Below, in pieces: positions 3,673-35,779 of a stretch of DNA of 64,000 bases. Location of the stretch: assembly GCF_963506605.1 (NCBI RefSeq), contig NC_083286.1, forward strand, positions 35,588,001-35,652,000, in the 5' to 3' direction. The DNA comes from Zootoca vivipara (taxonomy: Eukaryota). Within the stretch, counting starts at the first letter, position 1, and every line of letters begins with the position of its first letter. The position numbers and the translations under genes were made by a program. Under the pieces are notes generated by a model. It saw only the letters and a program-made list of their open reading frames with translations, had not been told where the DNA came from and searched no databases.

Positions 3673-4868
3673 GATCTTTCGCTCAGATTGGACCAAAAAC
3701 CTTTTCCTTCTATTCAGCAGAAGAAGAATTTGAAAAAATCCCATTGGGAGACGATGACACTGAAAGCAATTCAGAAATGGGATCGGGTTCTATCAATGAA
3801 AGTATATTCCGTGGAGAAACACGAATGCTGCCAACTGAACGGATCTCTGGAGATATCAAGGAGTACCTGACTAGTGGATGGCTGACCGTTTTTGTTCCAT
3901 CAGTTTATACCTTAGTTGTCATGCTGAGTCTTCCTCTGAACGTCATGGCAATTCTTGTGTTCCTGATAAAAATGAAGGTGAAAAAGCCAGCTGCGGTGTA
4001 CATGCTCAACCTGGCTTCTGCGGATGTTCTCTTCGTGAGTGTGCTTCCTTTTAAGATTGCCTACCATTTTTCTGGGAACAATTGGGCATTTGGACCTGAA
4101 ATGTGTCGTTTTGTCACTGCTACCTTCTACTGCAACATGTACTGCTCTATCCTGCTGATGATGGTGATAAGCATGGACCGTTTCCTAGCAGTGGTGTACC
4201 CAATGCAGTCTCTGTCATGGCGCACGCGAAGGCGTGCCTTTGTGGTCTGTCTTGCCATCTGGCTTGTAGCAATAGCTGGGGTGATACCTCTGCTAATCAA
4301 TGAACAAACCCAAAGAATCCCTCAGTTAAACATCACAACGTGTCATGATGTGTCAAACAATGATGATCTTAAAGGCTATTACCTTATTTTTTTCACCGTT
4401 TTCTCTTCTCTTTTCTTTTTTGTGCCATTAATTGTTTCTGCCGTTTGCTATGTGTGTATCATTCGGAGTCTCAGCTCTTCCAATGTTGCTGCAAAGCAGA
4501 GCAAGAAAACACGGGCTTTGTTATTGTCTGTAGCTGTTTTCTCCATTTTTATTATGTGCTTTGGTCCAACCAATGTCTTTTTGTTAATTCACTACATCAG
4601 CTTTTCTTACAAAAACTACTTGGGGAATATCTACTTTGCCTATCTCATCTGTGTCTGTACTAGCAGTATAAGTTGCTGCATTGATCCTTTGATCTATTAT
4701 TACACCTCTTCTGAATGTCAGCGACACCTTATCCATCTTTTTTGCTGTAAAAAGACCTCTGAATCCTGCAGTACCAGTACCAGTGGCCAATTAATGACTA
4801 GGACCAGTAGAAGGGCTACTTGCACCAGTACACTTGGTAACAGTGTCTACAGGAAGCTATTAACATAG
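3673..4868 (+). CDS. F2R: Proteinase-activated receptor 1 (thrombin receptor), coding exon 2; exon 1 not found in window
   Basis: Acceptor ttcattttctAG at 3671-3672 (phase 1); GPK/TFSFYS then hirudin-like EEEFEKIP; 7TM with DRF, TTCHDV, DPLIYY; CC palmitoylation pair; terminal NSVYRKLLT (human NSIYKKLLT); synteny with F2RL1 and S100Z. Confidence 0.95.
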
Positions 4869-12810: not shown

Positions 12811-12883
12811 ATGGGCCGAACTCTGAAGATCTTTTCTCTGCTTAATATACTCTGCACCTTACATAGCACAGTAAGAGCAAACA
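12811..12883 (+). CDS. PAR1-like paralog B, exon 1 (signal peptide MGRTLKIFSLLNILCTLHSTVRAN)
   Basis: ATG, hydrophobic stretch, phase-1 donor GTAAGT at 12884; homologous to exons at 20701 and 29175. Confidence 0.8.
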
Positions 12884-13099
12884 GTAAGTACCCTTACCTT
12901 GGTTTGTGAATGATTTAACATGCTTTAATTTGTACAAGGCAAGCAGAAAGGGGGGGCAGTCTACTTATTTATGATGCCCCTTTCTACTTGGATGGCATTC
13001 CATCTTGCCTTAAGTATTGTGTGATGCCCAATTTTGTGTGACAGGAAGGGTAAGGCCCGTTCCATGAGTGGAAGTCCATTCTGCCAACATGCAGACACC

Positions 13100-13470
13100 A
13101 TTACCATTGAAAAGGGTTCAGAAAAGGGCAATCAAAATGATCCAGGGGATGGAGCAAATCCCCTATGAAGAAAGAATGGAGCATTTTGGGACCTTTCAGT
13201 TTGAAAAGGCACATGAGAGGTGACATGATAGAATTTCATTAAAAAATTATTCCCGGCATGGAGAAAGTGAATAGAGGAAAGTCTTTTGTCATCTTTACTC
13301 TAGAACTCATGGGCATCCAATGAAGTTGCACGTTGGAAGATTCAGGGCAGGCAAAAGAAAATCCTTCTTTCCACAGCGCATAGTTAAACTAGGGAACTCA
13401 CTTCCACAGGAGGCAGTACTGGCCACCAAACTAGGTGGTTTTAAAAGAAGATAAGACAAATTCATGGAGG
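13100..13470 (+). mobile_element. Old CR1 LINE fragment
   Basis: Degenerate EKVQKRAIKMI...RGHPMKL-type CR1 ORF2 C-terminal sequence. Confidence 0.6.
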
Positions 13471-13473
13471 AGA

Positions 13474-13798
13474 GTTGTGGTCTAAACCACTGAACCTCTT
13501 GGGCTTGCCAATCAGAAGGTCGGCAGTTCCAATCTGCGTGATGGGGTGAGCTCCAATTGCTCTGTCCCAGCTTCTGACAACCTAGCAGTTCAAAAGCATA
13601 CCAGTGCAAGTAGATAAATAGGTACCGCTGCAGCGGGAAGGTAAACAGTGCTTCCATGTGCTCTGGCTTCCATCAAGGTTTTCCATTGCGCCAGAAGTGG
13701 TTTAGTCTGTGGACAAACGCCTGAAAGCAAGATGAGCACCACAATCCCATAGTCGCCTTTGACTGGACTTAACCATCCAGGGATCCTTTACCTTTACC
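13474..13798 (+). mobile_element. Sauria SINE
   Basis: tRNA-like head, core AACCTAGCAGTTC...GCAAGTAGATAAATAGGTACC, (ACCTTT)n tail. Confidence 0.85.
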
Positions 13799-14871
13799 AT
13801 TTTTTAATTAGTCACTTATCACTCGAAGGTCTTCAAGCAGCTTACATTAAAGCAAAATATGTGCACATCCATACTACCACAGGATGAGGAAAGAGAGGGG
13901 AATCATATACCGGTAATACAGTAATCTTTCATATAATATACAGGTTATAGAATAACAATACAATAGCCACATAAACAGCAGCAAACAACATTAGCAGTAC
14001 TCAAACAATAAGCAAAGCAATACTCCCATCCACTAATGAGCAGATAAATCAAACCTCAACACTCTCCCTAGTCCAAAAACCATTCACATCAAACCAATGG
14101 TTCCCCCTTTAATCTCCCCACCGCACCTAGAAGTTTGCTATCAGGCCAGCTGCTGCAAATCCGCAGTGGGTGGGTGAAACTTCCTCCAGAGGTGGTCCAG
14201 CATTTCTCCCTTCTCTTCAAGGTGGGGGAAGTAGCAGCAAAGCAAAGCAGGGAGATGTTGTTACCAGCCATGATGGCTTTGCTCTGCCTCCACAGATAGA
14301 GGCAGAAATGCTTCTAAACCCAGTTGCTGAAAACAATAGGAGGGGAGAGTGCTTTGTTCTTGAATCTTGCTTATGAGTTTCCCACACACTTCTGGGTGGC
14401 CACTGTAAGAACAGGGTGCTAGGCTAGATGGCCATTCCTGATCTAGCAGACCCTTCTTATGTTCTTGTTGGATGGTAGTGCTATTTTTCTAGAAAAAGAG
14501 GTGCCGGGACTCCCCATGAACATCCCCTTGTTTTCTTCTAATGGCAATGGCATCCACCTGAGAGGTGCCGCAACTGATGTCCGGTGAGTTCCAGCTGAAA
14601 AAAAAAGCCCTGGATAGCACCCATTGTGCTTATTCTTCTATTAGGAAGACAAGCTTCGGGATTTTTTTCCAAATATATGTGAATTAAATTAGATATTTAG
14701 GTTTTGATTTAAAAGGAATTCCATTCCATCCCCAAATCAGTTAGAGTGCATCTAAATCATTTTTTGTTTTTGTATGTCCCGTCTCTGAAATTTGTGTGAT
14801 TTTGTTGTGCAGTGAAATTTGTATTGTTTTATCGTTTTTATGCTCATTTGACATTCTTTAAGCCACTAATG

Positions 14872-15008
14872 CAGGCATAGGCAAACTCTGTCCTCCAGAT
14901 GTTTTGGGACTACAACTCCCATCATCCCTGACCACTGGTCCTGTTAGCTAGGAATGATGGGAGTTGTAGTCCCCAAAACATCTGGAGGGCCGAGTTTGCC
15001 TATGCCTG
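14872..15008. mobile_element. Palindromic hAT-type MITE
   Basis: TIR CAGGCATAGGCAAACTC, 8-bp TSD CACTAATG; family members at 34919-35054 and 63299-63434. Confidence 0.85.
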
Positions 15009-15505
15009 CACTAATGCAAAATGTACCTTCTTTAAAGAGGCATAAGCTTTCTAGCAACTCCTTGGGAGTGCTTTCAACTGACCTGTGCTCTCTTGACTCT
15101 TGATAGCTTTTAACGTATAGGACACCAGTATTTGCAGCACACTCTCTTCTGTTCTGTTATAGAATAGGATCAGAAAAGGGACATACTGAGAAGGAAATAA
15201 CTGATTTGTAGTAGAGAGACCTCCAAAGTAATAGAGTGTTTCAGCATAAAATAAAAAAGTAAGGAAGGGGTTTCAACATTAATTGTATTAGCACAGACCC
15301 CTCCTGGGATCTTACAGTGAGAGGGCAGGGATCACAAATCAACAACAAAATTAACAACAACATTCCTAATAATCCAGATTGGAAAATACAAATCTGTAAT
15401 TTAGTAGTCTAAACTTGTATTCTGATGAAGAGAGTAATACTGAATGTTATGCTGGTGTTGACATAATTAATTATACATTGCTTCTCCTTTCAAATTCATC
15501 CTTAG

Positions 15506-16563
15506 ATGCGGCTAGGAGCCTCTTGCCAATTTTCATCAGCCCTTCTACACATGAGAATGAGTTGGACATCCACAATCAACACACAGAGTCCATTCACCTC
15601 TCAGAGGACATTGAAACATTCATAACTAGTCCATGGGTAACTCGGTTTGTTCCTTCAGTCCACATTATTGTTGTTATGTTCAGTCTTCCTTTAAACATTA
15701 TTGCAATCCTTGTGTTTGTGGTCAAATTAAGGCTTAAAAAGTCAGCTACAGTGTACATGCTCAACCTGGCTTTTGCCGATGTCCTCTTCGTTTGTGTGCT
15801 TCCTTTTAAGATCATCTACCACTTTTCTGGAAACAACTGGACATTTGGACCAGAAATGTGTCGTTTGGCCACATCTGCCTTTCACTGCAACATGTACTGC
15901 TCCATCCTGCTGATGGTGGCGATAAGCATTGACCGTTTCCTGGTCGTGGTGTACCCAATGCAGTCTCTGTCATGGCGCACACCAAGACGGACCACTTTGA
16001 TCTGCTTTGCCATCTGGATTATAGCCATAGCTGGAGTGATTCCTCTGCTTCTCAATGAGCAAACAGAAAGATTCCCTCGCTTAAACATTACCACCTGTCT
16101 GGACTCACTAGCTTTCTCTACAATGAAGACATTTTATCGTTACTTTTCTGCAGTGTCTATTTTGTTCTTTTATATACCATTACTAATTTCTGGTACCGGT
16201 TATGTGTGCATTATAAAGAGGCTTTCTTCACCCCATGTTGCTACAAAGCCAGGTAAAAAGAAGCGTGCCATTCTCCTGTGTGTAGCTGTCTTGTCCTCTT
16301 TTATTATTTGTTTTGGTCCAACAAATGTCGTGTTTATGCTGCAAGTCTTCAGCCTTTTGCCTGAACAGCAGGTTGCGAATCTCTTGTTTGCATGCATGCT
16401 TGCCACTTGTATCACTACCATAAGCTGTTGCATTGACCCCTTGATTTATTATTATGCCTCTTCAGAGTATCAAAGGCAGGTCTGGCGCCTCCTGTGCAAT
16501 AGAAAGCATTCTGATCTGGAAAGGAGCATTCGGTTTACAAGCAGTAATATAGAAACCTCATGA
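15506..16563 (+). CDS. PAR1-like paralog B, exon 2 (7TM GPCR; spliced product about 376 aa)
   Basis: Open frame with PAR1-type NLAFADVLF, FSGNNW, CNMYCS, DRF, CCIDPLIYY; likely acceptor cttAG at 15504-15505 keeps phase 1. Confidence 0.88.
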
Positions 16564-16590
16564 ATATAGCTTTTAATCATTTGCCCAGAG

Positions 16591-17473
16591 CAGGGGTCGG
16601 CAAACTACAGCCCAGGGGCTGGATGTGGCTCCCACCAGGCTTGCAAATCCGGCCCACGGACCCTGCCGCCCGCTCAGTCAGTCCCCGCGCACTGCGGAAG
16701 CCTCGCCATGCAGGGATTGACTTCCATGACACTGGCACAGCTTCTGGGTGGGCAGTGGCGCTGGTGTGGCTTCAGATTGCCTGCAGGAAGCTCCTGCAGT
16801 CAATCTGAAGCCACGATGTTTGGATTTGCACACAGGGGAGGCACCAGAGCAGAGCAGAGGCAGCGCTGCGGCCCCAGCACCCATGGTGACGGTGTGCGCT
16901 TGGCAAGAGCCCCTGGCTTCCCCTCGGCCTCTCCTCTGATGCCTCTTCCTCCTCCTCTGCCATTGCTGCTGCTGCTTCTCCTCCTCCCCGATGCTGTGGC
17001 AGCTGCGGCCCCTTTCTGGGTGTGTGGGATATGAGGAAGAAAGAGGCACCACTGCCATTGCAGGTAACCAGGCTTGGGCCCCGCGGCGAAGCAGAGTGTG
17101 TAAAGCAGAGGGGATTATCATTGCAAGAAGATTTGTGTGGCGCTTGCACAGGGCCAGAGATTACACACACACACAGAGACCTTGCCACAATATTGTTGTG
17201 ACCGTTGCATGGTGCGCACTTACCCAGAGTTGTTGCGGTCTGGTGGGATGTGATGTCAACTTAACTTTTACGCAGAGGGCAGGCCTGCTGGAATGAATGG
17301 ACCCAGGTTAGGCATGGCCACTCGTGTCAACAGGTGTACTCTTGAGTTAAAAACAGGGCAGCGACGTCCGCGTAAATATGCATTTTTTAAAAAACTACCG
17401 GTATAGTCTGCCCCCCCACAGTGTTTGAGGGACAGTGAACCGGCCCCCTGTTTAAAAAGTTTGAGGACCCCTT
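16591..17473. mobile_element. Non-autonomous hAT (Charlie-like) element
   Basis: TIRs CAGGGGTCGGCAAACT / AGTTTGAGGACCCCT; near-perfect 8-bp TSD GCCCAGAG/GTCCAGAG. Confidence 0.75.
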
Positions 17474-17682
17474 GTCCAGAGCATAGCATTTGATCTTATT
17501 AAAATTATTAATTGCCTTTTGTAGAAATCACAAGGTGGTTTGCAACCACACAGTTATATCTGATGTAATGTACTCATTCATAAAAATGGCTTTTGCATGT
17601 CACAGAGGTGGATACTGGTTCACAGCTGCCTTTGATGTCCATGTATTTATTTCTATAGGATAGTACCTAGAGCATTTAAACA

Positions 17683-18217
17683 TGTCTGGGGCTGATCTGC
17701 ATTGGATGCCACAGACAAGTCTGACTCTGAGGCTGAAGGGATGCAGGCACAGACAGAGCACCCTCTGACAAAGGAGGAAGGGGAGGATTGCCGCCCCCCC
17801 CCCTTTACACGTTCCCAGAATCAGAGAGACCAGCAGATTCAGAAGCTGCTCAGTCGGGGAAAGAGCTGCACAGTTCTGAGATAGTAGCTAGGCAACCAGT
17901 AGGGAGGGAGCCTTTAGGACGTTCTTCCATAGAGAGTGCTGGGGAAGTCCCTCCCTCCCCTAAAACTCGATGGACTGAAAGGGTCCAGGAACGACGGAAG
18001 CACAGGGGAGGGACAGGTGGCCGGTGGCGTGCTTCTTGCTGCAGAAGGGGAAAGGATCTTAGGGTGAGCAACTGCCATCCGTGAAGGGGGACGGTTTGAT
18101 GCTTGTTGTATGTTGTTGTAAATAAAATGGACTACAAACCTGCCAAAGGCTCGTTATTTCTCATCAGAAGCTACTGGAGAGAGGGGGAAACTCCCTTTCC
18201 TGCCAGCATACCTGACA
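17683..18217 (+). mobile_element. Solo-LTR-like element (Gypsy-type ends)
   Basis: TGTCTGG...CCTGACA ends, near 5-bp TSD AAACA/AAATA, AATAAA at 18121. Confidence 0.6.
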
Positions 18218-18743
18218 AAATACTTCTCACTTAATCACTGCCTATGGCGTTGAATAACTATTCTTATGAAATGGGGGCAAGACATTATTCCTCTCTGAAA
18301 ATGACATATTGAGAGAAACGGGAGTATTATTAGTAAGGCACCTGGTTTGAACAGTAGAAGACCCGATGGTAAGTTTACCGAGGGAATTGGAGAAGATTTA
18401 TGAATTTGGTCAAGTAGCAGGATTTCAGCTGAATAAGAGTGAAATGAAAATGCTGGTGAAAAATATGACAGAGCATCATCAAAAACAGTCTACAAAATAT
18501 TACAGAGTTGACAATGGACAACATTACAAAATACAAATATTTTAGATTTGGAGGGTCACAATGACAGATTTGGTTGGCATGCATATCTATGGTATGAAAA
18601 AGAGGATTCCTGAACCATCTAGTAAGAAAGTCACTACATGTGGTATGGGAGAAATATAAGAATTTGTTAGAGCAGAAAACACCATAGTGGTTCTCCCCAT
18701 TAGAAGCTATTTTTTGTTGGGGGGGGATTGAATATGAGAAAGG

Positions 18744-19180
18744 GCAGAACCCTGAGGCACCCCACAAGTGAAAGCCCAGGGGTCTGAACACTCATCCCCC
18801 AACACCACTTTCTGAACATGGCCCAGGAGGAAGGAGCAAAACCACTGTATAACAGTACTCCCAGCTCCTCTAGACGGTCCAGAAAGATGTTATGGTCAAT
18901 GGTATCAAAGGCTGCTGAGAGATCCACCAGAACTAGGGAACAGCTCTCACCTTTGTCCCTAGCGCGCCGGAGATCATCGACCAGTGCGACCAAGACAGTT
19001 TCAGTCCCATGATGAGGCCTGAATCTCAACTGGAAGGGATCCAAATGGTCCGCATTTTCCAGGCGTGCCTGGAGTTGTTCAGCAACCACCCACTCAATCA
19101 CCTTCCCCAAGAATGGAAGTTTTGAGACTGGCCAAGTCTAAAGATGTTTTTTAAGAAGCGGTTTTATAACTGCTTCTTAG
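18744..19180 (-). mobile_element. L2-clade LINE RT fragment
   Basis: ORF 18700-19110: DPFQLRFRPHHGTET...DLSAAFDTIDH. Confidence 0.85.
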
Positions 19181-20055
19181 TAGAAGAAGAACATCAGCCT
19201 TCCTATTTCTACTCTTCTCTCAATTACTAAACACCATTTAGTAACTTTAAATGCTTTACTTACAAAACTCCAGAGGTCAGATTCATGTGTTTTTCCACGC
19301 AACAGCAAGAAAAACACAGGTAGAAATCTTGGGATACAAAATATAGTGAAATAGCTCTAATGTCAGGAGCTGCCTGGGACTGATGGGATCAGCTACCTCC
19401 CGTTCCAATGAGAAACTGCTCTCCCTCCCTTGTGCCATGAGTGACTGTGATTCCTGAGAAAGCTGGCTTCCCTCCAGCCCGCCTCCCCTCCCCTGAGTTG
19501 ATAAGCTGCATTCCTGCCAGCTTCAGAGGGGGGGGGAGAGTTGTCAGTCCACTGGTTCCAGCTGTCTGAGAAGTCTGCAAGTCTCTCTGTTCTTCTGCCT
19601 GCCTGCCTTCTATCTCAAGGCCGTACTTCTTGGCTTTGGGCTGGAGTGTTCATGACATCTAAGCATATGGTCTGAGCTTGTAGCAAGCGATCCTATTGCA
19701 GTGAGTTCACATGGTGAAAGAGAACAAATAAGGAGGAAGCTTAACTTCCTCCCGGGTGAGGGGCATAACCTGAGTCTAGGAATGGGTTTCTGTAGTCTTA
19801 ACCCCTTCATGCATTAACAAACTCCATGCTTGCTAGTTATATTTGACTGCAATTCCCAACAAATGTCACCTCCAAATGTCACTTCTCCACAAATGTGAAG
19901 GAGTGGGCTATGTCTACTTTCCTCTTTCTGAAAGAACATCAACTACTATAGCCCACTATGTAGCCTCTGGCCGCATCCACCACTACACCAGAGAAAAAGA
20001 GTGTGTGTGACCTGTGGCTTGAAAAGGGTCCCCTATCCCTGGTTTCAGCTAACAC

Positions 20056-20192
20056 CATGGGCATAGCCAGAGGGGGGACAGCTCAAGTAAATAAATAAAG
20101 ATACTTAACTAACTGACCCATTGTGTCACAGATAGCATGGTTCTAACAAACCTCCTTTCCCCCCACCAGCAAAAATCCTGGCTACGCCCATG
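20056..20192. mobile_element. Short hAT-type MITE
   Basis: TIRs CATGGGCATAGCCAG / CTGGCTACGCCCATG, TSD GCTAACAC/GCTAACAT; absent from the paralogous site near 28725. Confidence 0.7.
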
Positions 20193-20700
20193 GCTAACAT
20201 TCATTCAGGTCTAAAATGGATTAATAGTAAAGCACTTTATCCACTGAGAAAATATATAAGAAAATGAAAAATTATCTGTTAATGTTATTTAGGAGTCCTA
20301 AATCTTCTTTCTTTGCTGAAAATGGATAAATGGAAAACCACAACAATTGCTTCTATATCAATTACTTGCCTCATAATGGGATTCCCAGAAATTATTTGCT
20401 TTTAGGAAGCATCTTTTAGAAAAGTAAAGGGAACAGAAGAGTTGCCTGAGAGTTTTCAAATAGCGCTTTGGGAATTGGGCTGAAGAGAGAGGTTTAAAAA
20501 CCTCTGCTGCTTCTAGAATGAAGCGATGTGATGACAAATGGGGTTGACTCTCACTTCTGTTGATGTATGGTAACATTCAAGCCCAAACTGGACATGGAGA
20601 TGGCAGCTAGATTTAGATCTCAGTGAAGTTTCTGTATTCTGAGGCAAAATAAGCTGATTTTCAGGGAAATCCTTGCAATTTCGTCTAGGCAGAACCAAAG

Positions 20701-20800
20701 ATGAGGTGCACCTCTGAGGGAGAAATAGGCGCTTTCCTCAAGATCTTCTTTTCTCTGTTCAGTATAGTCTCCACCGTATTTAGCACGGCAAGTGCAAACA
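20701..20800 (+). CDS. PAR1-like paralog C, exon 1 (MRCTSEGEIGAFLKIFFSLFSIVSTVFSTASAN)
   Basis: ATG, hydrophobic core, A-S-A signal cleavage motif, phase-1 donor GTGAGT at 20801. Confidence 0.8.
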
Positions 20801-21582
20801 GTGAGTACAACCCAACATCCTTTCTCCACAATTTAATATTTAAAGCAATGTGTTTATATTGTGCAATTGTTTCAGGGAACATTCACTTTCTCTTACTTTT
20901 CCAAATGATTGTGATATGGAGGAAGAACCAAGTTGAAGGGTTTTAAAAGAGGAGGGAGAATATCACTGTAACATGGGGAGAAATCTGCTTTGCAGTGGTT
21001 ATATCCAAATATTTTTAATATTCAGTTTATCAGACACTTGCACATAAAAAGTTTCCAAGTGAAATAAATCATAAAATATAATGATTGGTTTCACTGAACT
21101 GAATTCCAGTTCGTACCTTAGCTTAATCGGGGCTTCTGTTTTCAATTTGAATGGAATCTGGTTTGAGGGAATGCACATTGAATGAGAGTATTTCTCATGA
21201 AGCAATGGGACACAGATGGATTGTAGCTAACATCCTGTGTACCTGGCTTCAAACACTGATGGTGAAAGCACACTGGAGCAGGAATAAACAGCAATGTGTA
21301 CACAGCCTAAGAGCAGGAAAAGCCTAGTCAGAAGTCTAAGTCAGGGGATGCATGGCCCTCCATATGCTGTTCGGCTGTAAAGCATTAAAGGGTGATCCCC
21401 TATCCTCCAGATTACAGCAGTATCTGGATGGCCAAAGGTTCCTCAACCTTTGTTTAAAGGTTATTATCTCACATTTTCATGTAAATCCATACACTGAAGT
21501 TTATCATTTGGAATAGGGAAAGCCAGGGAGAAGGGATAGCAATGGAATTTTTGTCAACATCAGTACAGTAATTTTTAAAATA

Positions 21583-23917
21583 CAGTGGTACCTCTGGTTA
21601 CAAACTTTATTCGTTCCAGAGGTCCATTCTTAACCTGAAACCATTCTATTATTATTATTATTATTAAATATTTCATTGAGTTGCAAAAATATGTGCAACG
21701 TCTCTTGTAACATCTTTACAAATCAGTTTCATTTGTTGTGACATTGGGAAGAAAAGGGGGAAAGAGGTAGATGGGGGAGGGTGGGTGGAGGTGGGGTTGG
21801 GTGATGATGTTTCTATTTTGCTTAATATGTATGGGTTTTTTTGTCAGTGTCACTTGTGTAGGTTCTCTGCTGTTCGCTTGCGTTCCTTTGGTGGTGAGAG
21901 ATGTTGGGGTTGGCCTAGGATATGGTTGTTCATTTGGGGTTGGCTGTGGTGGTCTTTGTTTCGTGTGTGAGTGGGGTGGGTAGGTGTTTTGGGTCAGGTT
22001 AGCCATATTGATTCGTATGCTGTTGGTGGATTTTTGTTGTTGTCTTGTTGGGCTGTGTATGTGATAAAGGGGAACCATACTGGGGTGAAGCCGTCTTCTT
22101 CTATTTGTCCCCGTGTCAGTTTCAGCTAATTGGTTAATTTTTCTAGTAAGGCTGTTTCCCTTACTATTTGGTACCATTGGTCCATGTTTACTCCTGACAG
22201 GTCTCTCCAGTGTCTGGTTATGGTGTTTCTGGTTGCTGAGAGTAAGTGGGTTATGAGTTCTTTGTGATGTAGGTGGGCCTTATTGTCTTGGAAGATGTTT
22301 AGCAAGGCCAGTTCTGGGGTGATTTCTAATACTTGTTTGGTTATTTTACATATATCTCGTATGGTTGTTGTCCAGAATAGTTGGATTTTGGAGCACTCCC
22401 ACCACATGTGGAAATATGTGCCTGTTGAGGTGCACCCTCTCCAGCATTTTGGTGAGGTTCCTGGGCGTATTAGCACTAGTTTTCTTGGTGTTAGGTACCA
22501 CCTGTAGGTGAGTTTCAGAGTGAGTTCTTTCCTTTTTGTTGATATAGATTTAAAGGGGGGTTTAGACCACATTTTGGTCCACTGAGTGGGGCTAATCTCG
22601 TAGCGTATGTCATCTTCCCATTGTCTTTTGACTGTGTCTAGGGGATTTGTGGAATTTTGGAGTAGTATTTTATATATTGCAGATACCATCCCTTTGCCGT
22701 GTCCCTTTGTCGTTAGGAGGTTTTCAAAGGTTGTCAGAGGCCTAGTTGCTGCTGATTTTACCGCTGGGTTGCTTAGGAGGGCGTGTAGTTGGTGTTGTGC
22801 TAACCAAGGTATTTGGGTGTCTTCTAGTTTATCCAGTATTTCTTGTGTTGACAAAGCTTTGTTATTTTTATAAAGGTCTATTAGGCGATATAAGCCTTTG
22901 GCTTGCCAGGTTTTTATCTGGAGGTTTTGTGCTGCATGGTGGAATAATGGGTGGTAAGCCAGGGGGGTTAGTGGGGATGGGGTTGGGGATAGTTTGCCCA
23001 TTTCTGTTTTCCATGCTTTGAACATGGTTTGTGTGTACCTATTAAGTGTTGTGGGGATTTTCTTTTGTTTGGGAGGAATGGGTATGCTGTGGTGCAGATA
23101 TTTTCAATTGAGTCCCTCTGTAGGTTTATCCATTGTTTTGTCTCATCTTCCAGTATGTATGGGATTATATGTCGTATTTGATTGGCTCTGTAATACATTT
23201 CTATGTTGGGGATTCCCCATCCTCCTTGTGAGGTGGGGCTATGCAGATATTTGGTGCTTATTCTTGGTTTTTTATGTGAGAAGATGAAAGAGTGTAGTTT
23301 TCTCTGCCATCTGCGAAGTTGGGTTGGGAGAATCCAGATTGGGAGGGTTTGGAATAGGTAGGTTAGTTTTGGGAGGGTGGTCGTTTTGATCATGGCCATT
23401 TTGTCTGAGAGAGTGAAATTCATATTGTTCCATCTCTTTAGGTCTTTGTTTATTTGTCGCCATAGGGTATAATTTGTTGAGGTTTTTGGTTATTTGTAAC
23501 CCTAGGTATCTGAACTTGGTGTGACAGAGTTTTATCTTGGTGATATTAGTGGGTTCTTTCTGGGTGTGAGGAGAGGTGTTGAAGCACATGGCTTCTGATT
23601 TTGTAAAGTTTACTTGTAGGCCTGACACTGTTGCAAATGTGTTGAGTTCTCTGATTAGGGAGGTTGCTGTGTTTAAGGGGTCTGGTGTTGTGACCATTAA
23701 GTCATCTGCAAAGAGTCCTAATTTGTATGTTCTCCCTTTTTTTATTTCTACCTGAAACCATTCTTAACCTGAGGTACCACTTTAGATAATGGGGCTTCCC
23801 ACTGCTGCTGCCGCACGATTTCTATTCTCATCCTGGGGCAAAGTTCTTAACCCGAGGTACTACATCTGGGTTAGCGGAGTCTGTAAGCCGAAGTGTTTGT
23901 AACCCAAGGTACCACTG
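21583..23917. mobile_element. Tigger/pogo-type MITE interrupted by an L1
   Basis: TA-flanked TIR CAGTGGTACC; uninterrupted relative at 59270-59509. Confidence 0.85.
21648..23749 (-). mobile_element. 5'-truncated L1-clade LINE (ORF2 RT C-terminus and zinc knuckle, frameshifted)
   Basis: FADD near 23701-23712, SGLQVNFTKS, GGWGIPN, CWRGC...HMWWEC; (TAA)n tail; 15-bp TSD ACCTGAAACCATTCT (21633-21647, 23750-23764). Confidence 0.9.
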
Positions 23918-24048
23918 TACCCTATTAAGTATAGCCAAATCTATAACTTCATTTGAATTAATATTCTCATGAGTAAACCAAAGTTGTTGTATTGACTTCT
24001 GTAACATTGTTAATATGGCCATTTATATATCTGATCTACATATTGCAG

Positions 24049-25136
24049 ATTCCACATTTCCCCTTATTGCTGCTGGTTTCCCTATATATTATACTCATGA
24101 GGAAAACAACTCCAATCAATCCACAAAGCGTGCATTTATCACAGAAGATGGTGAAAAATACTTGACTTGTCCATGGCTGACACGCTTTGTTCCTTCAGTC
24201 CACACTGCTGTGGTTATTTTGAGCCTTCCTTTAAACATTATGGCAATTCTCATGTTTGTGGTCAAATTAAGGCTTAAGAAGCCAGCAGTGGTGTACATGC
24301 TCAACCTGGCTTCTGCAGATGTCCTCTTTGTGAGTGTGCTTCCTTTTAAAATCGCCTACAACTTTTCTGGAAACAACTGGATGTTTGGGCCTGAGATGTG
24401 TCGATTTGTCACTGCTGCCTTCTACTGCAACATGTACTGCTCCGTCCTGCTGATGATGGTGATAAGCATTGACCGTTTCCTGGCCGTGGTGTACCCAATC
24501 CAGTCCCTGTCCTGGCGCACAGCAAGACGGGCCTCGATGGTCTGCTTTCTCATCTGGCTTCTGGCTATAGCTGGGGTGATACCTCTGCTTGTCAATGAGC
24601 AAACAAAGAGATTATCCCGGTTAAATATTACAACCTGTCGTGATGCAGTAGATATCTCTGCTTTTATGGATATATTTCGGCATTACTTTTCTGCATTATC
24701 TATTTTGTTCTTTTTTATACCGTTATTAATCTCCACCACCTGTTATGTGTGCATTATAAGGAAACTTTCTTCGTCCAATGTTGCTGCAGAGCCTAGTAAA
24801 AGGAGACGTGCCGTTCTCCTGTCTGTAGCTGTCTTGTCTTCTTTTATTATTTGTTTTGGTCCTACAAATGTCCTATTACTAGTGCACAGCTTGTACTTCT
24901 TACCTGATCAACCCCTTGAAAGTCTGTATTTTTCCTACATCTTAGCGGTCTGCATTGGTACCATAAACTGCTGCATTGATCCCTTAATTTATTATTATGC
25001 CTCTTCAAAGTGTCAAAAGCAGGTGTGGGATCTCCTGTGCTATAAAAAGCAGTCTGGTCTCGAACAAAGCAGTCAGACAACAAGCAGTAATGCCACAAAT
25101 CATTTTAGTGGCCTGAAAAATTTGTCTCAAGCATAG
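24049..25136 (+). CDS. PAR1-like paralog C, exon 2 (spliced product about 395 aa)
   Basis: Acceptor ttgcAG at 24047-24048, phase 1; intact PAR1-type 7TM. Confidence 0.9.
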
Positions 25137-26670
25137 AATTTTACAGTGTGTGGTACAGTATTCATAAATATAGGTGTTGCATGCCAAAGCATGCATAATT
25201 TGTCCCAAGCATAGCATCTTACATTAAATATGTTTGCAGTATGTGCAGTAATACTCATTTGTAAACCTAGTGTTGCATGCCACCTATTTTACAGCCTCTG
25301 TCTTTAACGTCCACGCATTCTTGCTCTAGAATATTTATGCTTTTTTCTTATATTCCAAGAAAAAGATATCAGACCATGGTTTTTCTGCAGCTGCTGTTAA
25401 AATAACGTCTGCCTAGAGACATGTTTTGCTCCAATGGTGATTGTATAGAAATAAATATTATATTTTGTTGTCCAGTTATTTTCTCATTATCTTTTCATAA
25501 CATTAACAAATGTGAACTGTTGCCATTTTACATCTACTGTATATGCAGTAATTATGAGTTTGCGGGCAAGGGGGCATCAATATGCTGATGGCACTAAGGT
25601 CTCTTTTTCCATAACATCTGTGTTGGGGGAGGCTGGGCTGTCTCTGGACCCGTGCTTGGATGTAGTGCAAGATGGATAAGGGAAAACCAGTCTGAGTTGG
25701 ATAGAATTAGGCTACAGTTTATTGATTACAGAGCAACAGGTTTGATGAAGGTATCAGGCATGGATCACATCCATGGGATCACATAGCCCATTTGCCGCTT
25801 GATAAGCTTATTTTTTGACCATCACGGTTACTCATCCTGGCATGAACCGCTATCTAATGAGCTTCCTCTGGCCACCGGCAGGGGGTGCCATGGCCTGTCA
25901 GCCCACAAGCTGGACTTCTGGACAGAAATTGCTGCCTCCAAGATCCCTCAAGGGGACCCCCTACGAGCTGCGACAAGGTGCCCCCTCCTCTACCCCTCCC
26001 TTATCCAGGGCATTTTTAAAAGCAGGAATTCACAGGAACTCAGTTCTGGCACCTCTCAGGTAGGCACCATTGCTATTATAAGAGAACAACAGAGGTGTTC
26101 ATGGTGAGTTCTGGCACCTCTTTTTCCAGAAGAACAGCACTGCTCTTACATGACAACAGTTGTGACAATTTAAAAGTGTAGTGGAAACAAATCAACAGAA
26201 ATTATTAAAAGGATGTCTGGGTGGGGAGATCGGCTCTGAACTGCAGTGAGGAGCAGCAGCGGGGGAGGGGGTCCCCTTAAATACTTCCAGAGAGGACCAG
26301 ACTCCCAGAACCTTCTATCTTGTCTGCTCTGGAAGTCCCTCCCCTCACCCACAGCTCCCAGCCCTTCACCGCAGCTCCATGTCTCACCCAGCTCCAAAGA
26401 GCCTGACCCAACGCAGAATATTCCTGGTGCTTCTGCTTCCTCCTTGCAACTGCCCCAGGCTGCAACAACTGCCCCCAGTAATCTGGGAATGGGAGGATTC
26501 TGGCAAGAACCTTTTGAAACAGGAATATGATTTCATTCTGTTTGCAAAGAACGTGTTGGTACATTCAGAGGGACCAAACTAGATGAGATGGCAGTGATGG
26601 TAGCTTTTCCAATAGAGAAGACGGAGCTTTGGTGTACTGTATTGCATAGCTTTTTGTCAGTCTCCCTGAT

Positions 26671-27278
26671 TGCTGTTGTTTAGTCGTTTAGTCGTGTCCG
26701 ACTCTTTGTGATCCCATGGACCATAGCACGCCAGGCACTCCTGTCTTGCACTGCCTCCCGCAGTTTGGTCAAACTCATGTTCGTAGCTTCGAGAACACTG
26801 TCCAACCATCTTGTCCTCTGACGTCCCCTTCTCCTAGTGCCCTCAATCTTTCCCAACATCAGGGTCTTTTCCAAGGATTCTTCTCTTCTCATGAGGTGGC
26901 CAAAGTATTGGAGCCTCAGCTTCACGATCTGTCCTTCCAGGGAGCACTCAGGGCTGATTTCCTTAAGAATGGATAGGTTTGATCTTCTTGCAGTCCATGG
27001 GACTCTCAAGAGTCTCCTCCAGCACCACAATTCAAAAGCATCAATTCTTCGGCGATCAGCCTTCTTTATGGTCCAGCTCTCACTTCCATACATCACTACT
27101 GGGAAAACCATAGCTTTAACTATACGGACCTTTGTCGGCAAGGTGATGTCTCTGCTTTTTAAGATGCTGTCTAGGTTTGTCATTGCTTTTCTTCCAAGAA
27201 GCAGGCGTCTTTTAATTTCGTGACTGCTGTCACCATCTGCAGTGATCAAGGAGCCCAAGAAGGTGAAATCTCTCACTG
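26671..27278 (-). mobile_element. BovB/RTE LINE 3' fragment
   Basis: ORF ...SESWTIKKADRRRIDAFELWCWRR...KSRTRLND, (CAA)n tail, near-TSD GTCTCCCTGATT/GTCTACCTGATT. Confidence 0.92.
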
Positions 27279-27622
27279 TCTACCTGATTAAATGTAGCCA
27301 AACAACTTAGCAGTAATAAACATTCAGAGTTGCCTAATGTAAGCAGACCGCTGAATCCAGTTTTTGTTGTCTAAGAATCTGAATTACGCTTGGCAACATG
27401 TGTGTGTGTGTGTGTGTGTTTGTGTGCAACTATAGGTTTTATCCAACAAAATTCTGCTCAGCGTAGATCCATTGAAATTAATGGACCCAACTTAGACTTG
27501 TCCATTAACTTCAATGGGTCTACTCTGAGTAGGATGAACATTGGGGGAGCAGACCTACAGAGGACTAAGCAGGGAGGAGCTGCTTTGCACCATCTTTGCC
27601 CGGTCTGTTCCCCCAGCCATCA

Positions 27623-27625
<3 letters not shown>

Positions 27626-27692
<67 letters not shown>

Positions 27693-27693
27693 C
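27626..27693. repeat. (TG)n(CTGC)n microsatellite
   Basis: Seen directly. Confidence 0.95.
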
Positions 27694-27987
27694 ATCAGTT
27701 CATTGGGAGACACGATATCATACACCTGCACAATTGCAATAATAGTGGTTGTTCAAAGTTATCATGCTTCCAAAATGCTCATAAATGCATGATGACATCA
27801 CATAGTCCCAACACACAGACATAGTTGTATTTATTGATTTGGGGTTTTCTTTTCCCCACAGGCCTCCCTAAACGCAATACATAAATTCAAAGATTTCTGT
27901 GCTTAAAATACTGCAGATTTGCGTGTTTCTTTTCATAAATTTTGTACTTCACCAATAGGAAATGCTCAAGCAGTGATACTGATGTGG

Positions 27988-28444
27988 TGTCAGGGACTGG
28001 ACATCGGAGGAGGAATGGTGAACCTTCCCGAGAAGAGGAGGACAGTATAGATTTACAACAGTGGTTTGCAGAGGGTCACAGATCAGAGATAGAAGAGGGG
28101 GAAAGCTGGAAAATAATGGGAGAAGCAGAGCAGGAACAGCTGGCTGACATGTTATCACTAGAGAGCATTCTAGACCCCCCTTCTCCCAGGACCCGACGAG
28201 CAATGAAAGTAGGAGAGCGGAGAGCTAAGAGGCAATTGGCCCTAAGCAGCCACTGTAAGGGGTGTGTGCTGTTGATGACTGAGAAGGGAAGGGGGGAGGA
28301 GATTACTCGGAGTAATGCCATTAACCCAAGAGGCAACATTTCTGAGTCTCTCTGTGAACATTGACTAATATGCATTGGTATGAACTTATTGTATATCTAT
28401 TGCTTGCAGTCTGCCGTGAGAGGGAGGGATCAGATTCCCTGACA
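27988..28444 (+). mobile_element. Solo-LTR-like element (Gypsy-type ends)
   Basis: Terminal inverted TGTCAGGGA/TCCCTGACA and perfect 5-bp TSD TGTGG. Confidence 0.75.
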
Positions 28445-29174
28445 TGTGGATAGAATGTCCCTATATTCATCTGAGGAATGGTGAAGGGTAAGCTAAAGGT
28501 GTGCTACATAAAAGGTAATCTTAATATTTTCCCCTGAGCAGGGCAATATTTGCCACAGAGGAATGTGTGAGTGTGTGTTGAACTAGCCTACAGCACAAAG
28601 GTAACATTTACCATTGTTGATCCACTCACTTTTTAACCTCTCCCCCTCTGGCCATGTGGCCCTCCGAAAAAGGGCGGAAAGCCCTTGGGTGGGGGGGGGG
28701 AAGGTTTCCCAACCCGGATTTCATCTAATATTCATTCGGGCCTAATGTTGATTAATGGTAAAGCACTTTATCCACTGAGTTTTGCTTTTTAATGTATTCT
28801 CACCCTTATTTTTTTCTGGAAACAGATGAACTGAAAACCACAACAAATGCCTTTTAATCTATCAACGCAACATAATGGGCTTTCCAGGAATGCTTTTAGG
28901 AAGAGTCTTTTAGAAAAGTACAGAAGACTTGTCTGAGAGTGCTTTGGGGAGTAGCCAGAAAGAAGAGATCAAGAACGCTCTGCTCCCTATAGGATGAAGT
29001 GGTGTTATGGCAGTGTGGGTTGGCTCAGCTTCTTCTACGGATAAACTAACATTAAAGCCCAAAATAGGCAAGGAGATGAGAAGTGGATTTAGATCTCAGG
29101 GAGGAAACAAAGAAAGCTTTTTTTTTCAGGCAGATCCCTTCAGTTTCTTCTTAGAGACCTAGTGGAACCAAAAG

Positions 29175-29274
29175 ATGAGGTTCGCCGCTGGAGGAGAAAT
29201 GGACCCCTCTCTGAAGATCCTGTTTCCTCTGTTTAGTATGGTCTTCACCTTATTTAGCACAACAAGAGCAAAAA
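29175..29274 (+). CDS. PAR1-like paralog D, exon 1 (MRFAAGGEMDPSLKILFPLFSMVFTLFSTTRAK; second ATG at 29199)
   Basis: Hydrophobic signal peptide, phase-1 donor GTAAGT at 29275; homologous to the other two exon-1 copies. Confidence 0.82.
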
Positions 29275-29686
29275 GTAAGTACAACCCAACACAATTTCTC
29301 CACAGTTCAATATTTATAGTTAAAGCAAGGCATACGCAATGTGCAATTGTTTCAGGAAAATTTCACTCTCTCTGATCTTTCCAAATGATTGTGCTATGGA
29401 AGAAAAACCATGCTGAAGCAGCAAGAGTAAAGGAGGAGGGAGAGTATCCTTGTACTAGGGAAAAATGTACTTCTCAGTGGTAATATTTATCAGTCACTAG
29501 CACATAAAAAAATATCTAAGTGACTGCAACATTTTAAGAGCATAAGGTATAACGTAAGATCAGAAGAACAATGAATAAAGCATTTTGTAGGGGTTTTTTG
29601 CTCTAAAATTCCTACCCTATTTAGGGTGAACTCAGACTGTCTCTTCTTGCACAATCTGCCTCTGATATTTCGGCAAGGAGGTGATG

Positions 29687-30076
29687 TTGATGTTGTTGTT
29701 GTTGTTTAGTCGTTTAGTCGTGTCTGACTCTTTGTGACCCCATGGACCATAGTATGCCAGGCACTCCTGTCTTCCACTGCCTCCCGCAGTTTGGTCAAAC
29801 TCATGTTCGTAGCTTCGAGAACACTGTCCAACCATCTCGTCCTCTGTCGTCCCCTTCTCCTAGTGCCCTCCATCTTTCCCAACATCAGGGTCTTTTCCAG
29901 GGAGTCTTCTCTTCTCATGAGGTGGCCAAAGTATTGGAGCCTCAGTTTCAGGATCTGTCCTTCCAGTGAGCACTCAGGGCTGATTTCCTTCAGAATGGAT
30001 AGGTTTGATCTTCTTGCAGTCCATGGGACTCTCAAGAGTCTCCTCCAGCACCATAATTCAAAAGCATCAATTCTTC
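29687..30076 (-). mobile_element. BovB/RTE LINE 3' fragment in the paralog D intron
   Basis: Same RTE C-terminal ORF, (CAA)n tail, TSD GGTGATGT. Confidence 0.9.
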
Positions 30077-30926
30077 GGTGATGTACTTCACAGAAAATCA
30101 AGGATTTCTTTACTGCATAAGATCTTGTACTTCGCTAAAAAATAAACTTGTCTCTGTTAGATTGGGCAAAAAAGCTGGCCATAGTTCACTCCTCACAAGT
30201 TAGAGATCCAAGCACCCTTAAGATGCTACAGTTCCTATGATTCTTTGATGGAAGTTGTGTGCTTTAAATGTATGCGTGTGTACACAGGCAATGTCAGAAT
30301 ATGACTATGCCTACATTAGCAGCATGAAACACAGCGACTTGTCCCTGTCTCCCTTAGTTTCAAGTCACATTCTTAGATTGCTGCACACACCAGAGAAGGG
30401 GCAGGAGTGTCTTCACCTGGTGTCTATTACCACACTATTTCACCACACTGAACTCGCGTTCACTGAAGCTGTCAGCTGCATGTGTGCTGTCATCTGTACA
30501 TGCACAGTGGCTGTCACCCTAGCTTAATATTTGTTTCCATTTTCAAGCTGATGGAAGCTGGCTAGAGGGAAAGCACATCAAACAGGAATACTTCTTGAGA
30601 AGCTGCAAGTTGCAGGTGGATTGTGGCTAATGTCATGTGTATTTGGTTTCAAATACCAGCAGTATTGCTGGTAGACAACAATGGTCTAAAGGTTACTTTG
30701 CACATTTTCAGGATGGGGGGGGGGGAATAGCTGAAGTTTCTCATTAGCAATAGGAAATATGTAAATTTCATCTACAACAATAATTTTTAAAACCCCAAAT
30801 GTGTAATTCTATAATTTAATCTGAATTCATATTCTCATAAGTAAACTAACATGGTTGCATTGATGTTTGTAACATTAGCTATATAGGTATTCATAGATTT
30901 GATTTATATATTGCTTCATCTTTCAG

Positions 30927-32050
30927 ATTCATCCTTGGGCATCCAGCCTTTTTTTCGTAGTTTCCCTGTGATGGAAGAAAATGATAATAATATGGAAATA
31001 ATTACTAACAATACTTCGAACAACTCCAATCAATCCATAAAGCAAGTGGTTACCACAAAACAAGCTGAAAAATACTTGACTGGTCCATGGCTGACGCGCT
31101 TTGTTCCTTCAGTCCACACTGCTGTGGTTATTTTGAGCCTTCCTTTAAACATTATGGCAATTATCATGTTTGTGGTCAAAATAGGGCTTAAGAAGCCAGC
31201 AGTGGTGTACATGCTCAACCTGGCTTCTGCAGATGTCCTCTTCGTGAGTGTGCTTCCTTTTAAGATTGCCTACAACTTTTCTGGAAACAACTGGATGTTT
31301 GGGCCTGAGATGTGTCGATTTGTCACTGCTGCCTACTACTGCAACATGTACTGCTCCGTCCTGCTGATGATGGTGATAAGCATTGACCGTTTCCTGGCCG
31401 TGGTGTACCCAATGCAGTCTCTGTCCTGGCGCACAGCAAGACGGGCCTCGATGGTCTGCTTTCTCATCTGGCTTCTGGCTATAGCTGGGGTGATACCTCT
31501 GCTTGTCAATGAGCAAACAAAGAGATTATCCCGGTTAAATATTACAACCTGTCATGATGCAGTAGATATCTCTGCCATTATGGATATATTTCGGCATTAC
31601 TTTTCTGCATTATCTATTTTGTTCTTTCTTATACCGTTATTAATCTCTGTCACCTGTTATGTGTGCATTATAAGGAAACTTTCTTCGTCCAATGTTGCTG
31701 CAGAGCCTAGTAAACGGAGACGTGCCGTTCTCCTGTCTGTAGCTGTCTTGTCTTCTTTTATTATTTGTTTTGGCCCTACAAATGTCCTATTATTAGTGCA
31801 CAGCTTGCGCATCTCACCTGATCAACCCCTTGAAAGCTTGTATTTTGCCTACATCTTAGCGGTCTGCATTGGTACCATAAACTGCTGCATTGATCCCTTA
31901 ATTTATTATTATGCCTCTTCAAAGTGTCAAAAGCAGGTGTGGGATCTCCTGTGCTATAAGAAGCAGTCTGGTCTTGAACAAAGCAGTCAGACAACAAGCA
32001 GTAATGCCACTAACCTTTTTAGTGGCCTGAAAAAATTGTCTCAAGCATAG
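30927..32050 (+). CDS. PAR1-like paralog D, exon 2 (spliced product about 399-407 aa)
   Basis: Acceptor catctttcAG at 30925-30926, phase 1; PFFR/SFPVM; intact 7TM with TTCHD and DPLIYY. Confidence 0.92.
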
Positions 32051-33761
32051 AATTTTACAGTGTGTGGTACAGTATTCATAAATATAGATGTTGCATGCCA
32101 AAGATGTGAATATTTGTTTACAGTTCACATCTTTAATATCCATGCCATTCTTTCTCTAAAATATTTATGCTGTTTCTTATATTAAACGCTATATAAAATC
32201 AAAGAATCAGAGAATTTTAGAGTTCCCTTGATCAGGACACTATACTTCTGTTGATACAGCCTAGAATAGCACTTTGTTGCTGCATCATGCAAAATATTTC
32301 AAATTGGATTTATTTATTTTTGGCCGCTGTTAACATTAACATCTGAACTGATGTTTGTCCAGAGATCTGGTTTGTTCCAGTGAGGGATGTATATATAATT
32401 TGGGGGGGGGGGTCTGACAAGAGCCTTCTGAAACAGGAATGTGATTTCACCCTTTTGGAAAAGAACGCATTGGTACATTCACTCAAACTAGATAAGATTG
32501 TAGCTTTTCCAATAGAGAAGACACAGGAGGCAGAGTTTAGGTGTACTTTATAAGCGGTCATACTCCATGATTCAGTGTAACCAAACAAATTAGAAGTGAT
32601 AAACATTCAGAGTTGCCTAATGTAAACACACTATTGAATCAAATAGGTTTTTTGTGTGAGGGTGGGGGAGTTGCCTCAGAATTTGAATTACACTTGGCTG
32701 CAGATTGTGTATGTATGTGCATACAGACTATGGGTTACAGCCAGTGCTTTTTTTCCTGGGGGGACGCAGGGCTACGCATACCCCCTAAACATTTTGTGAA
32801 TCTAAGTTTGGCATCATTGAGGGGCAGTATTTCAATATGTGTAGGAAAATGAGAGTACCCTTAAACATTTAAAAAACAACAACAACACCACTGGTTACAG
32901 CAAACCAAATTCTACTCAGAGTAGACCAATTGAAATTAATGAACCTAAGGTAAACATGTACTTTAACAACACTGTGTCTACTCTGAGTAAGACTAACACT
33001 GGATGCAGCCTTAGACATTCGGACATTATGATACTAGACAAGGGAGCCGTGCAGACTGTGCAAGGGTTGGGCCTGTGCTAAGTACAAAGTGCAGTATTGG
33101 AGGTAAAACAGCAGGAGGTGGCAAGGGTGCTCATCCTGATGCACACAAAGATCTCTTCCTGCTGCCCTCTCTCTCAAAAAAAACACCCCTTTCTGATATC
33201 TCTATGCAGCTGGGCTTCCTCCAACTGCAGGAGCCTCCTGGAGAAGTTTGAAAAGGCTGGGGGGACTGACTTGTTTCTCCTCTCCCCTTTCAGCAACATG
33301 ATCAGATCTCCAGGTGCTTTATGTTGAATCTGAATGTCAGTGGGAGAAGGATGGGAGCAGGGGAAACCATGTATGAAATCACCTTGAGCAACTTAGAAAA
33401 AAGGGGGAAACAGAAATAAAATAAATAAACAATAATGGATAGACAAAGTTCCTGTTCGTTCATTCGTGGATGATGTCTTTCCTAGGGATCTGAAGAACAC
33501 TCCAAAGAGGACATTATTACCATCCGGATGGGCTGCAGTTCAGTGGCAGAGCACATGTGTTTTTTTCAGGAGGCCCCGGGTTCAGTTTCCACCATCTCCA
33601 GGTTTTGTTGGGAAAGGCTGTGTCCTGAAACCTGAACAGCCACTGCTGGTCAACATACACATCACATCACTGGTCTGATCCATCGGTTTTTCTTATGCTT
33701 TTGTTTTCATGAGCCTGCACTTGCCTAAGCTCGCTCCTTTTCCACCCCACTAATCTATTAT

Positions 33762-35054: not shown

Positions 35055-35779
35055 CAATAGAGATTCAGCAGGTACCTTCTGCACTGACTTTTAAAGAGCT
35101 GCTGAAAACCTTTCTACTACTAATAATAATACTTTTATTATTTGTACCCCACCCATCTGATTGGATTGCCCCAGCATATATATAAAGATTCCGCCAGGCC
35201 TAGGTGGTACATCCTCCACAATGGTATGTTTGTTTGTTTGTTTGTTTGTTTGTTTAAACCCACTGGTTTAGTGCATTGGTCTTCAGCTGTTGAGTATGGA
35301 CCCACTGCTGGGCCGCACCTTGACTTAAGGTGGGACACCAGAGCAGCACAACCACCCTATAAATATATGATAAAAATGTGTGGGCTCAAGTCTTAGCACG
35401 AATGAATGGCTTAGCACGAATGAATGGATTGGCAGACTGAAGATCACGGCTGCTGCAGCAGGACCCCAGGAGCAACTCTCAGCTGTGATCCTCAGTCTGC
35501 GAACCCACACATTTGCTAGCTCACGTTAAGCCATGGTTTGGCCTAGCATTACATGTGAACTGGGCCTAAATGGTTAAAAGTTTATCACAAACTGTGAACC
35601 AGACATATGAGATTAAATGACAACAGTTCCAGTTAGCTGGTAACTAGGGTGAAATGGTAGGATACTGCCAAAGAAAACTAGATAGTAAGAAGGCTGGAGG
35701 ACCCACGGGAGAAGTATGGAATAACTTCAGACAAAACTGAAATAGTGATAATGGCTATACTCGGGTTTCTCTTCAGATC

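Follow-up and report, generated by a model that had tools for sequence, protein, structure and literature searches.

Three additional PAR1-like genes of Zootoca vivipara belong to an old receptor branch and may respond to proteases other than thrombin

The protease-activated receptor (PAR) family is taught as four receptors. What, then, are the three additional receptor genes, here named B, C and D, that lie between F2R (PAR1) and F2RL1 (PAR2) in Zootoca vivipara, and to what might they respond? The window analyzed here is a stretch of 64,000 nucleotides (assembly GCF_963506605.1, contig NC_083286.1, positions 35,588,001 to 35,652,000 of the forward strand), and positions are counted from its first letter. 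A first-pass annotation of this DNA had described three complete two-exon PAR1-like genes and had proposed that they form a lineage-specific set of sensors tuned to non-thrombin proteases. We find that B, C and D are members of an old, separate PAR1 branch, at least as old as the split between tuatara and squamates. For C and D we favor, with a probability of roughly 0.55, the reading that the receptor would be cut in a short N-terminal bait by a protease other than thrombin and would be switched on by the Ser/Gly-Phe-Pro tethered ligand unmasked by this cut.

Six-frame translation of the window gave five PAR-type frames on the plus strand, namely F2R exon 2, the three PAR1-like genes and F2RL1, and the open frames of the three that are long enough for the seven-transmembrane (7TM) domain (15400-16563, 23973-25136 and 30887-32050) sit between F2R exon 2 and F2RL1. 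The signal-peptide exons of B, C and D are 73-100 nt long and end in phase-1 GT donors at 12883, 20800 and 29274; the AG acceptors stand directly before 15506, 24049 and 30927, and each is the only AG in the 60 bases upstream (B and C) or within 30 bases (D). Gene C starts at the ATG at 20701, because the position of B's ATG reads ATA in C, and gene D has in-frame ATGs at 29175 and 29199. When the exons were joined by script, frames of 376, 395 and 407 amino acids resulted for B, C and D, each with a single terminal stop and none internal, and the three complete genes described earlier were thus borne out. The features are as follows.

12811..12883, plus strand: gene B exon 1, signal peptide with phase-1 donor; residues 1-24 are identical to the Lacerta protein P0013
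15506..16563, plus strand: gene B exon 2, with the AAR/SLLPIF site (Ser at 15517) and a 7TM domain whose tethered-ligand pocket is degenerate; the acceptor appears to be shifted
20701..20800, plus strand: gene C exon 1, signal peptide, from the upstream ATG; a contig of run X8 lies over 20522-20775
24049..25136, plus strand: gene C exon 2, cassette and 7TM domain
24057..24092, plus strand: gene C bait FPLIAA and predicted tethered ligand GFPIYY (from 24075), aligned with the PAR1 cut site in two MAFFT modes
24154..25173, plus strand: C copy of the tract homogenized with gene D, likely by gene conversion (window identities; 34 differences in 984 coding bases)
29175..29274, plus strand: gene D exon 1, signal peptide (second ATG at 29199), supported by a spliced contig
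30927..32050, plus strand: gene D exon 2, cassette and 7TM domain
30935..30976, plus strand: gene D bait LGIQPFFR and predicted tethered ligand SFPVME (from 30959), by sequence alignment
31068..32087, plus strand: D copy of the tract homogenized with gene C (ends approximate)
3673..4868, plus strand: flanking canonical F2R (PAR1) exon 2; its exon 1 lies upstream of the window and was matched in L005
43442..49983, plus strand: flanking F2RL1 (PAR2), exon 1 at 43442-43514 and exon 2 at 48884-49983

A genome search, in which 110 of 528 candidates were scored, found F2R, B, C and D as the only PAR1-type genes of Z. vivipara. A PAR3-type gene lies 46 kb upstream, and B, C and D are located at the F2RL2-F2R-F2RL1 locus. 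A tblastn search of the window at E 1 gave no PAR1-like exon-2 remnants beyond the known copies.

Database proteins of Lacerta agilis, Podarcis muralis, P. raffonei and P. lilfordi sort into B, C or D types, and P0136, labeled in its source as a Z. vivipara "proteinase-activated receptor 1-like" model, holds the D exon-2 protein letter for letter. Transcript evidence was sought in X8, a public run whose kind is not on record and which was used as contigs, and in three raw RNA runs, of which about 6% each was read. In X8, contig 6 spans 28902-29274 and 30927-31267 unbroken and without mismatch (depth 2.6), thereby crossing the D junction 29274/30927; X8 contigs agree with D without mismatch over 28902-29274 and 30927-32194, and a separate contig covers the region of C exon 1. 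The genes are therefore real and not produced by assembly, given that the other lacertid assemblies carry the same types, that the flanks of C and D differ and that the contigs match D. Spliced expression, which the first-pass annotation had asked for in all three, was seen for D.

PAR1-like relatives were taken from two protein searches (best 120 of 448 and best 120 of 363 matches listed). Among these, PAR1-like proteins stand alongside canonical F2R in geckos, skinks, a cordylid, an amphisbaenian, tegu, Komodo dragon, python and tuatara. Among the matches listed, iguanians, colubroid snakes, turtles, crocodilians and birds contributed no member of the clade; this does not prove that they lack it. 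A 43-row tree joined all 24 PAR1-like rows, including the tuatara protein, in one group (100/97); the row Sphaero_F2R covers 48% of its columns and was replaced by a full row in a 52-row tree. In this second tree, with amphibian and fish outgroups, the group held (12 rows, 100/99) and was sister to all canonical sauropsid F2R (98/90; together 99/96), no canonical tuatara F2R being among the rows. PAR2 and PAR3 fell outside the group in a quick tree, in which one outgroup row (own_C6) was mistranslated. Descent from PAR1 is also evident in the DRF motif, the disulfide Cys of extracellular loop 2 (ECL2), DPxxY, the two exons with a phase-1 intron and the locus. A duplication confined to lepidosaurs, with the clade and squamate F2R as one group, was weakly rejected by the approximately unbiased (AU) test (p-AU 0.041); this outcome may simply reflect how fast the clade evolves, and we therefore claim an origin only as "at least tuatara plus squamates". 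The idea of a recent, species-specific panel did not hold, as the lineage reaches at least the tuatara-squamate split and B, C and D have orthologues in other lacertids.

In a PAR survey that sampled Anolis, PAR1 is reported as a single copy in reptiles and amphibians and as expanded in teleosts only (PMC4771116), and we likewise found no clade member in Anolis among the matches listed. RefSeq already machine-labels B, C and D as "PAR1-like", so in that sense they had been recorded; no description of a squamate PAR1 paralogue was found in the literature (titles and beginnings of abstracts, with subscription journals uncovered, and supplements of lizard-genome papers may list copies).

The N-termini read exactly as first annotated: AAR/SLLPIF in B, IAA-GFPIYY in C and PFFR/SFPVME in D, versus GPK/TFSFYS in F2R, and the hirudin-like acidic stretch EEEFEKIP of the window F2R is missing from all three. 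For a comparison across the clade, 17 of 39 rows could be used (excluded were five B-type rows, one with a duplicate N-terminus and 16 truncated or mis-modeled ones). An [SGAT]F pair lies 4-10 residues past the post-signal sequon in 15 of these 17 N-termini, versus 1.75 expected from shuffles, and MAFFT places most such pairs in the column of the PAR1 cut site. The residue before the putative cut (P1) is Ala in C, Arg in the window D and Arg, before Ser-Leu, in B. It is basic in 2 of 15 clade rows versus all 19 canonical rows displayed (four more canonical rows were cut off by trimming, and all read Arg elsewhere). Nine of the 15 baits, and none of the 19 canonical rows, have an aromatic residue at P2; four of the nine are D orthologues and three Hemicordylus paralogues. 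The D orthologues of three Podarcis have Ala at P1, so the Arg/Ser site of the window D is not conserved. With no hirudin-like exosite-I motif and no conserved basic P1 before Ser/Thr-Phe, B, C and D are, by the features that define such receptors in sequence, not thrombin receptors.

The bait itself is changeable. In F2R it is the same in five lacertid proteins (0/7 differences in all 10 pairs), whereas the window D differs from each Podarcis D at 5 of 8 bait positions plus a gap (1-2 of 9 within Podarcis). Among the Hemicordylus paralogues, five of six pairs show changes at 3-4 of 6 bait positions and at 2-4 of 25 spacer positions, and the remaining pair is identical there. The comparison across the clade thus upholds the earlier claim that cut sites vary among copies. 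The excess of bait over spacer changes is significant in Hemicordylus (Fisher p 0.006-0.04) and not in D, and positive selection on the baits is therefore suggested only. The P. muralis model P0144 is a fused model with two C-type N-termini, in which signal peptides and first helices are identical and the baits differ at 6 of 6 positions; it suggests further C-type copies in this species. Only its first cassette was used, and a body comparison with P0145 is invalid because of the fusion.

In contrast to their cassettes, the bodies of C and D are nearly the same. Between 24154 and 25173, 52-60 of 60 bases match per window, versus 13-48 of 60 in windows outside, including exon 1, around which the two genes are about 68% identical. 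In the coding part of the tract 34 of 984 bases differ (96.5% identity over the seven-helix body), with 16 synonymous and 16 replacement codons, and three of the replacements cluster in extracellular loop 3. Each cassette matches its own Podarcis orthologue, while the bodies of the window C and D group together (98/97). This pattern makes gene conversion between C and D likely, with the converted tract apparently stopping just before helix 1 and sparing the N-terminal cassette. Pairwise ratios of nonsynonymous to synonymous changes (dN/dS) over 293-294 codons of the 7TM domain are 0.20-0.45 (NG86) or 0.18-0.62 (YN00); they are below 1, as under purifying selection, although a value near 1 had been a concern. 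The 7TM bodies change about three times faster than that of F2R (33-38/300 versus 9-12/300).

Could such a body still be switched on by a tethered ligand? In PAR1 structures the ligand Ser contacts the main chain of H255 and Y337, the Phe sits on Y350, and a relay leads from Y350 through Y353, F271, Y183, F182 and M186; Y337 hydrogen-bonds the first ligand residue in both PAR1 and PAR2 (PMC11443083, PMC12033368). D256, Y161 and Y350 have been called invariant in the PAR family (PMC11443083). C and D retain Y161, D256, H336, E347, Y350, Y353, R200 and DPxxY, and both have Ser in place of Y337; C has Arg at 255, and both have Ala-Val at 257-258. Across the clade, Y353 is kept in 29 of 39 rows, D256 in 37, Y161 in 38 and R200 in all 39. 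AlphaFold2 folded D and B as complete 7TM receptors (mean confidence, pLDDT, 80 and 83.6). In the cut forms of both, residues 1-26 had pLDDT below 50 and the N-terminus was not placed, with no F2R or other positive control run. A complex prediction of the D 7TM domain with D residues 11-42 scored 0.00; the alignment was unused and peptides are outside the tested range of the tool, so this score was counted neither way.

The favored mechanism would work as follows. Removal of the signal peptide would expose a bait of 6-9 residues, whose P2-P1 pair is Ala-Ala in C, Phe-Arg in D and Phe-Ala, Tyr-Ser, Arg-Phe or Ala-Tyr in relatives. Kallikrein prefers Phe-Arg, elastase a small aliphatic P1 and chymotrypsin-type enzymes an aromatic P1, and such pairs would suit proteases of these types or of the cathepsin-L type. 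For cathepsin L the favored P2 residues are Phe, Trp and Tyr (PMC9712828), a preference that agrees with the baits of D and several relatives. After the cut, the Phe of the ligand would push against the Y350/Y353 relay, which C and D retain, and the signal would pass through the intact DRF and DPxxY motifs. Because Y337 is gone, efficacy would probably be lower, or the choice of the first ligand residue looser. Gene conversion would maintain a single signaling body while the bait changes. As to the earlier proposal of non-thrombin sensors, the genes are real, the hirudin-like motif is lost and the cut sites vary; the evidence names no protease, and tuning to any one of them is our inference. 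A link to venom was weighed too, but nothing in the evidence spoke for it and it was set aside. A bolder version, which we hold tentatively and think doubtful, is that a fifth PAR lineage of lepidosaurs would act as an immune panel of baits on a constant body kept by gene conversion, the baits evolving in a race with proteases of parasites, microbes or inflammation, often of papain or cathepsin-L type, and that the same design would have arisen independently in frogs.

Gene B does not fit this scheme. In B and three lacertid orthologues, position 183 is His, 255 Leu, 336 Gln, 337 Val or Ile, 347 Ala, 350 Leu and 353 Cys, so that Y183, H255, H336, Y337, E347, Y350 and Y353 are absent. With seven pocket residues lost, B is unlikely to be the ordinary third sensor it had been taken for. 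Its model is still closest to PAR1 (best match 8xos, TM 0.83; range 0.83-0.85). With its Arg/Ser site conserved and its pocket lost, B probably serves as a cofactor, supplies a ligand to a neighboring PAR or is activated by a different route. Its N-terminus resembles that of the python protein P0131 (score 50, a value reached in none of 2000 shuffles), and their putative orthology is read from this resemblance; in the tree of 7TM domains the two do not group. At 15492-15506 the ancestral acceptor of B reads AA, and an AG 12 nt downstream preserves the frame; with this shifted acceptor, B would lose four residues that the Lacerta orthologue has, a glycosylation sequon among them.

Several observations speak against the favored reading of C and D. 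Y337 (6.59) is retained in 1 of 39 clade rows (one gap) versus 26 of 26 canonical ones, and H336 and Y350 are kept in 16 and 20 of the 39. The [SGAT]F motif and the borders of the bait were picked after the sequences had been seen, and the rows are related; D carries an insert of 2-3 residues, and Podarcis D allows two registers. Between the window D and P. lilfordi D, 5 of 8 bait and 12 of 32 spacer positions differ (p 0.25), so the D bait may simply have drifted under relaxed constraint. AU tests against C-only and D-only clades gave borderline p values (0.060 and 0.044). In the portions read of the three raw RNA runs, the second exons of B, C and D had almost no depth (highest bin 0.41, over B in X16), and the B and C junctions (12883/15506 and 20800/24049) were unseen in the four runs, leaving one of three junctions found in one of four runs.

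A rival reading is that the clade has left tethered agonism, with a soluble ligand or constitutive signaling and an N-terminus that merely drifts: the loss of Y337, the retention of H336 and Y350 in only about half of the rows, the similar divergence of D bait and spacer and the faster 7TM domain all agree with it. We consider it rather unlikely, as 15 of 17 N-termini, drawn from the full range of squamates, hold the pair of a small residue and Phe in the register of the PAR1 cut, recent paralogues differ mainly in the bait, and C and D retain D256, Y161, Y350 and Y353. That all three genes are cofactors or decoys like mouse PAR3, which would modulate or trans-activate F2R and PAR2 without signaling through their own ligands, is a more remote prospect. 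It suits B best, with its conserved Arg/Ser site, python-like N-terminus and wrecked pocket, and cofactor and trans-activation modes are known for PARs (PMC4771116, PMC6440139); but PAR3-type cofactors use a hirudin-like site (PMC6440139), which B, C and D are without, R200 on the G-protein side is kept in 39 of 39 rows, and the pockets of C and D are largely intact. Redundant thrombin or trypsin receptors in birth-and-death turnover, with no new specificity, would account for the Arg/Ser sites of B and D, for copy numbers that vary among lizards and for the many truncated database models. This is improbable in view of the missing hirudin-like motif, a C site with no basic residue, Ala in the D orthologues, and the retention of B, C and D in Lacerta and Podarcis with dN/dS below 1. 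That the array was created by assembly, or that its genes are unexpressed pseudogenes, could be suspected from the 96.5% identity of the C and D bodies and the scant RNA depth in three runs, but it is barely credible next to flanks that are only about 68% alike, the same gene types in independent assemblies of four other lacertids, and mismatch-free X8 contigs that cross the intron of D, for which it is already refuted.

Among known systems, PAR1 itself is the closest. B, C and D share with it the two-exon phase-1 gene, the locus, the fold and 61-68% of 7TM residues, and C and D also the ligand register with Phe second; the clade differs in lacking the hirudin-like site, in its variable and mostly non-basic P1, in the loss of Y337, in forming a separate group and in the YKKLL/YRKLL tail (0 of 39 rows versus 24 of 26 canonical). 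This tail has a role in internalization. Zebrafish likewise has extra Par1 paralogues beside par2, uncharacterized in function and with differing N- and C-termini (PMC3408399), and six PAR1 copies (PMC4771116). These are teleost genes, and the lizard clade, being nested inside sauropsids (99/96), therefore arose separately. Mouse PAR3, a non-signaling cofactor, is a possible model for B, where the cut site is kept and own signaling is doubtful; it recruits thrombin via its hirudin-like site (PMC6440139), whereas B has none and is derived from PAR1. TLR15, an innate receptor of birds and reptiles that is activated by proteases, functions in a lizard (PMC6244663). It shows that reptiles sense proteases, but it is a Toll-like receptor and not a G protein-coupled receptor (GPCR) and has no tethered ligand, so it is an analogy only.

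The frog "PAR1-like" expansions, known to us as RefSeq models only, are alike in having many copies per genome, no canonical tail and some Phe-rich cassettes. They group with frog F2R inside the amphibians (95/90, 52-row tree) and are therefore separate from the lizard clade in origin; unlike in the lizards, frog rows with the sixth helix printed mostly keep His-Tyr. Leptodactylus fuscus has at least eight PAR1-like models among the frog proteins listed (P0166, P0349-P0448), and P0166 carries a duplicated Phe-rich N-terminal cassette.

With its variable cut sites and remodeled pocket, an old PAR1 branch of this kind would be a natural library that pairs cut sites with proteases and ligands with pockets, including receptors that work without Y337, a residue treated as key in human structures. 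If the baits do track parasite or inflammatory proteases, a GPCR arm would be added to the poorly known immunity of squamates.

Other observations were made in and near the window. The P. lilfordi C model P0007 has an extra N-terminus that is matched by a short ATG-led frame at 19383-19457, and just upstream of the ATG of C lies an AG (20688-20689); together they could mark an additional upstream exon of C. The intron of C holds, on the minus strand at 21700-23760, a broken retrotransposon fragment, judged by eye from its frames, which we take to be L1-like. Repeat ends at 26670-27400, 29700-30080 and 35750-36250, presumably RTE/BovB-like, are mutually 91-96% alike and attract most of the RNA reads. 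The window F2R has Ser at the L258 position of ECL2 (about 4356), where the other 25 canonical rows have Leu, and its ligand TFSFYS has a one-residue insert relative to TFPYST of Podarcis. Two neighboring PAR-related GPCR genes, L002 and L003, lie 33 kb apart on another contig (G000:C4, near 32.3 Mb) and served as outgroups.

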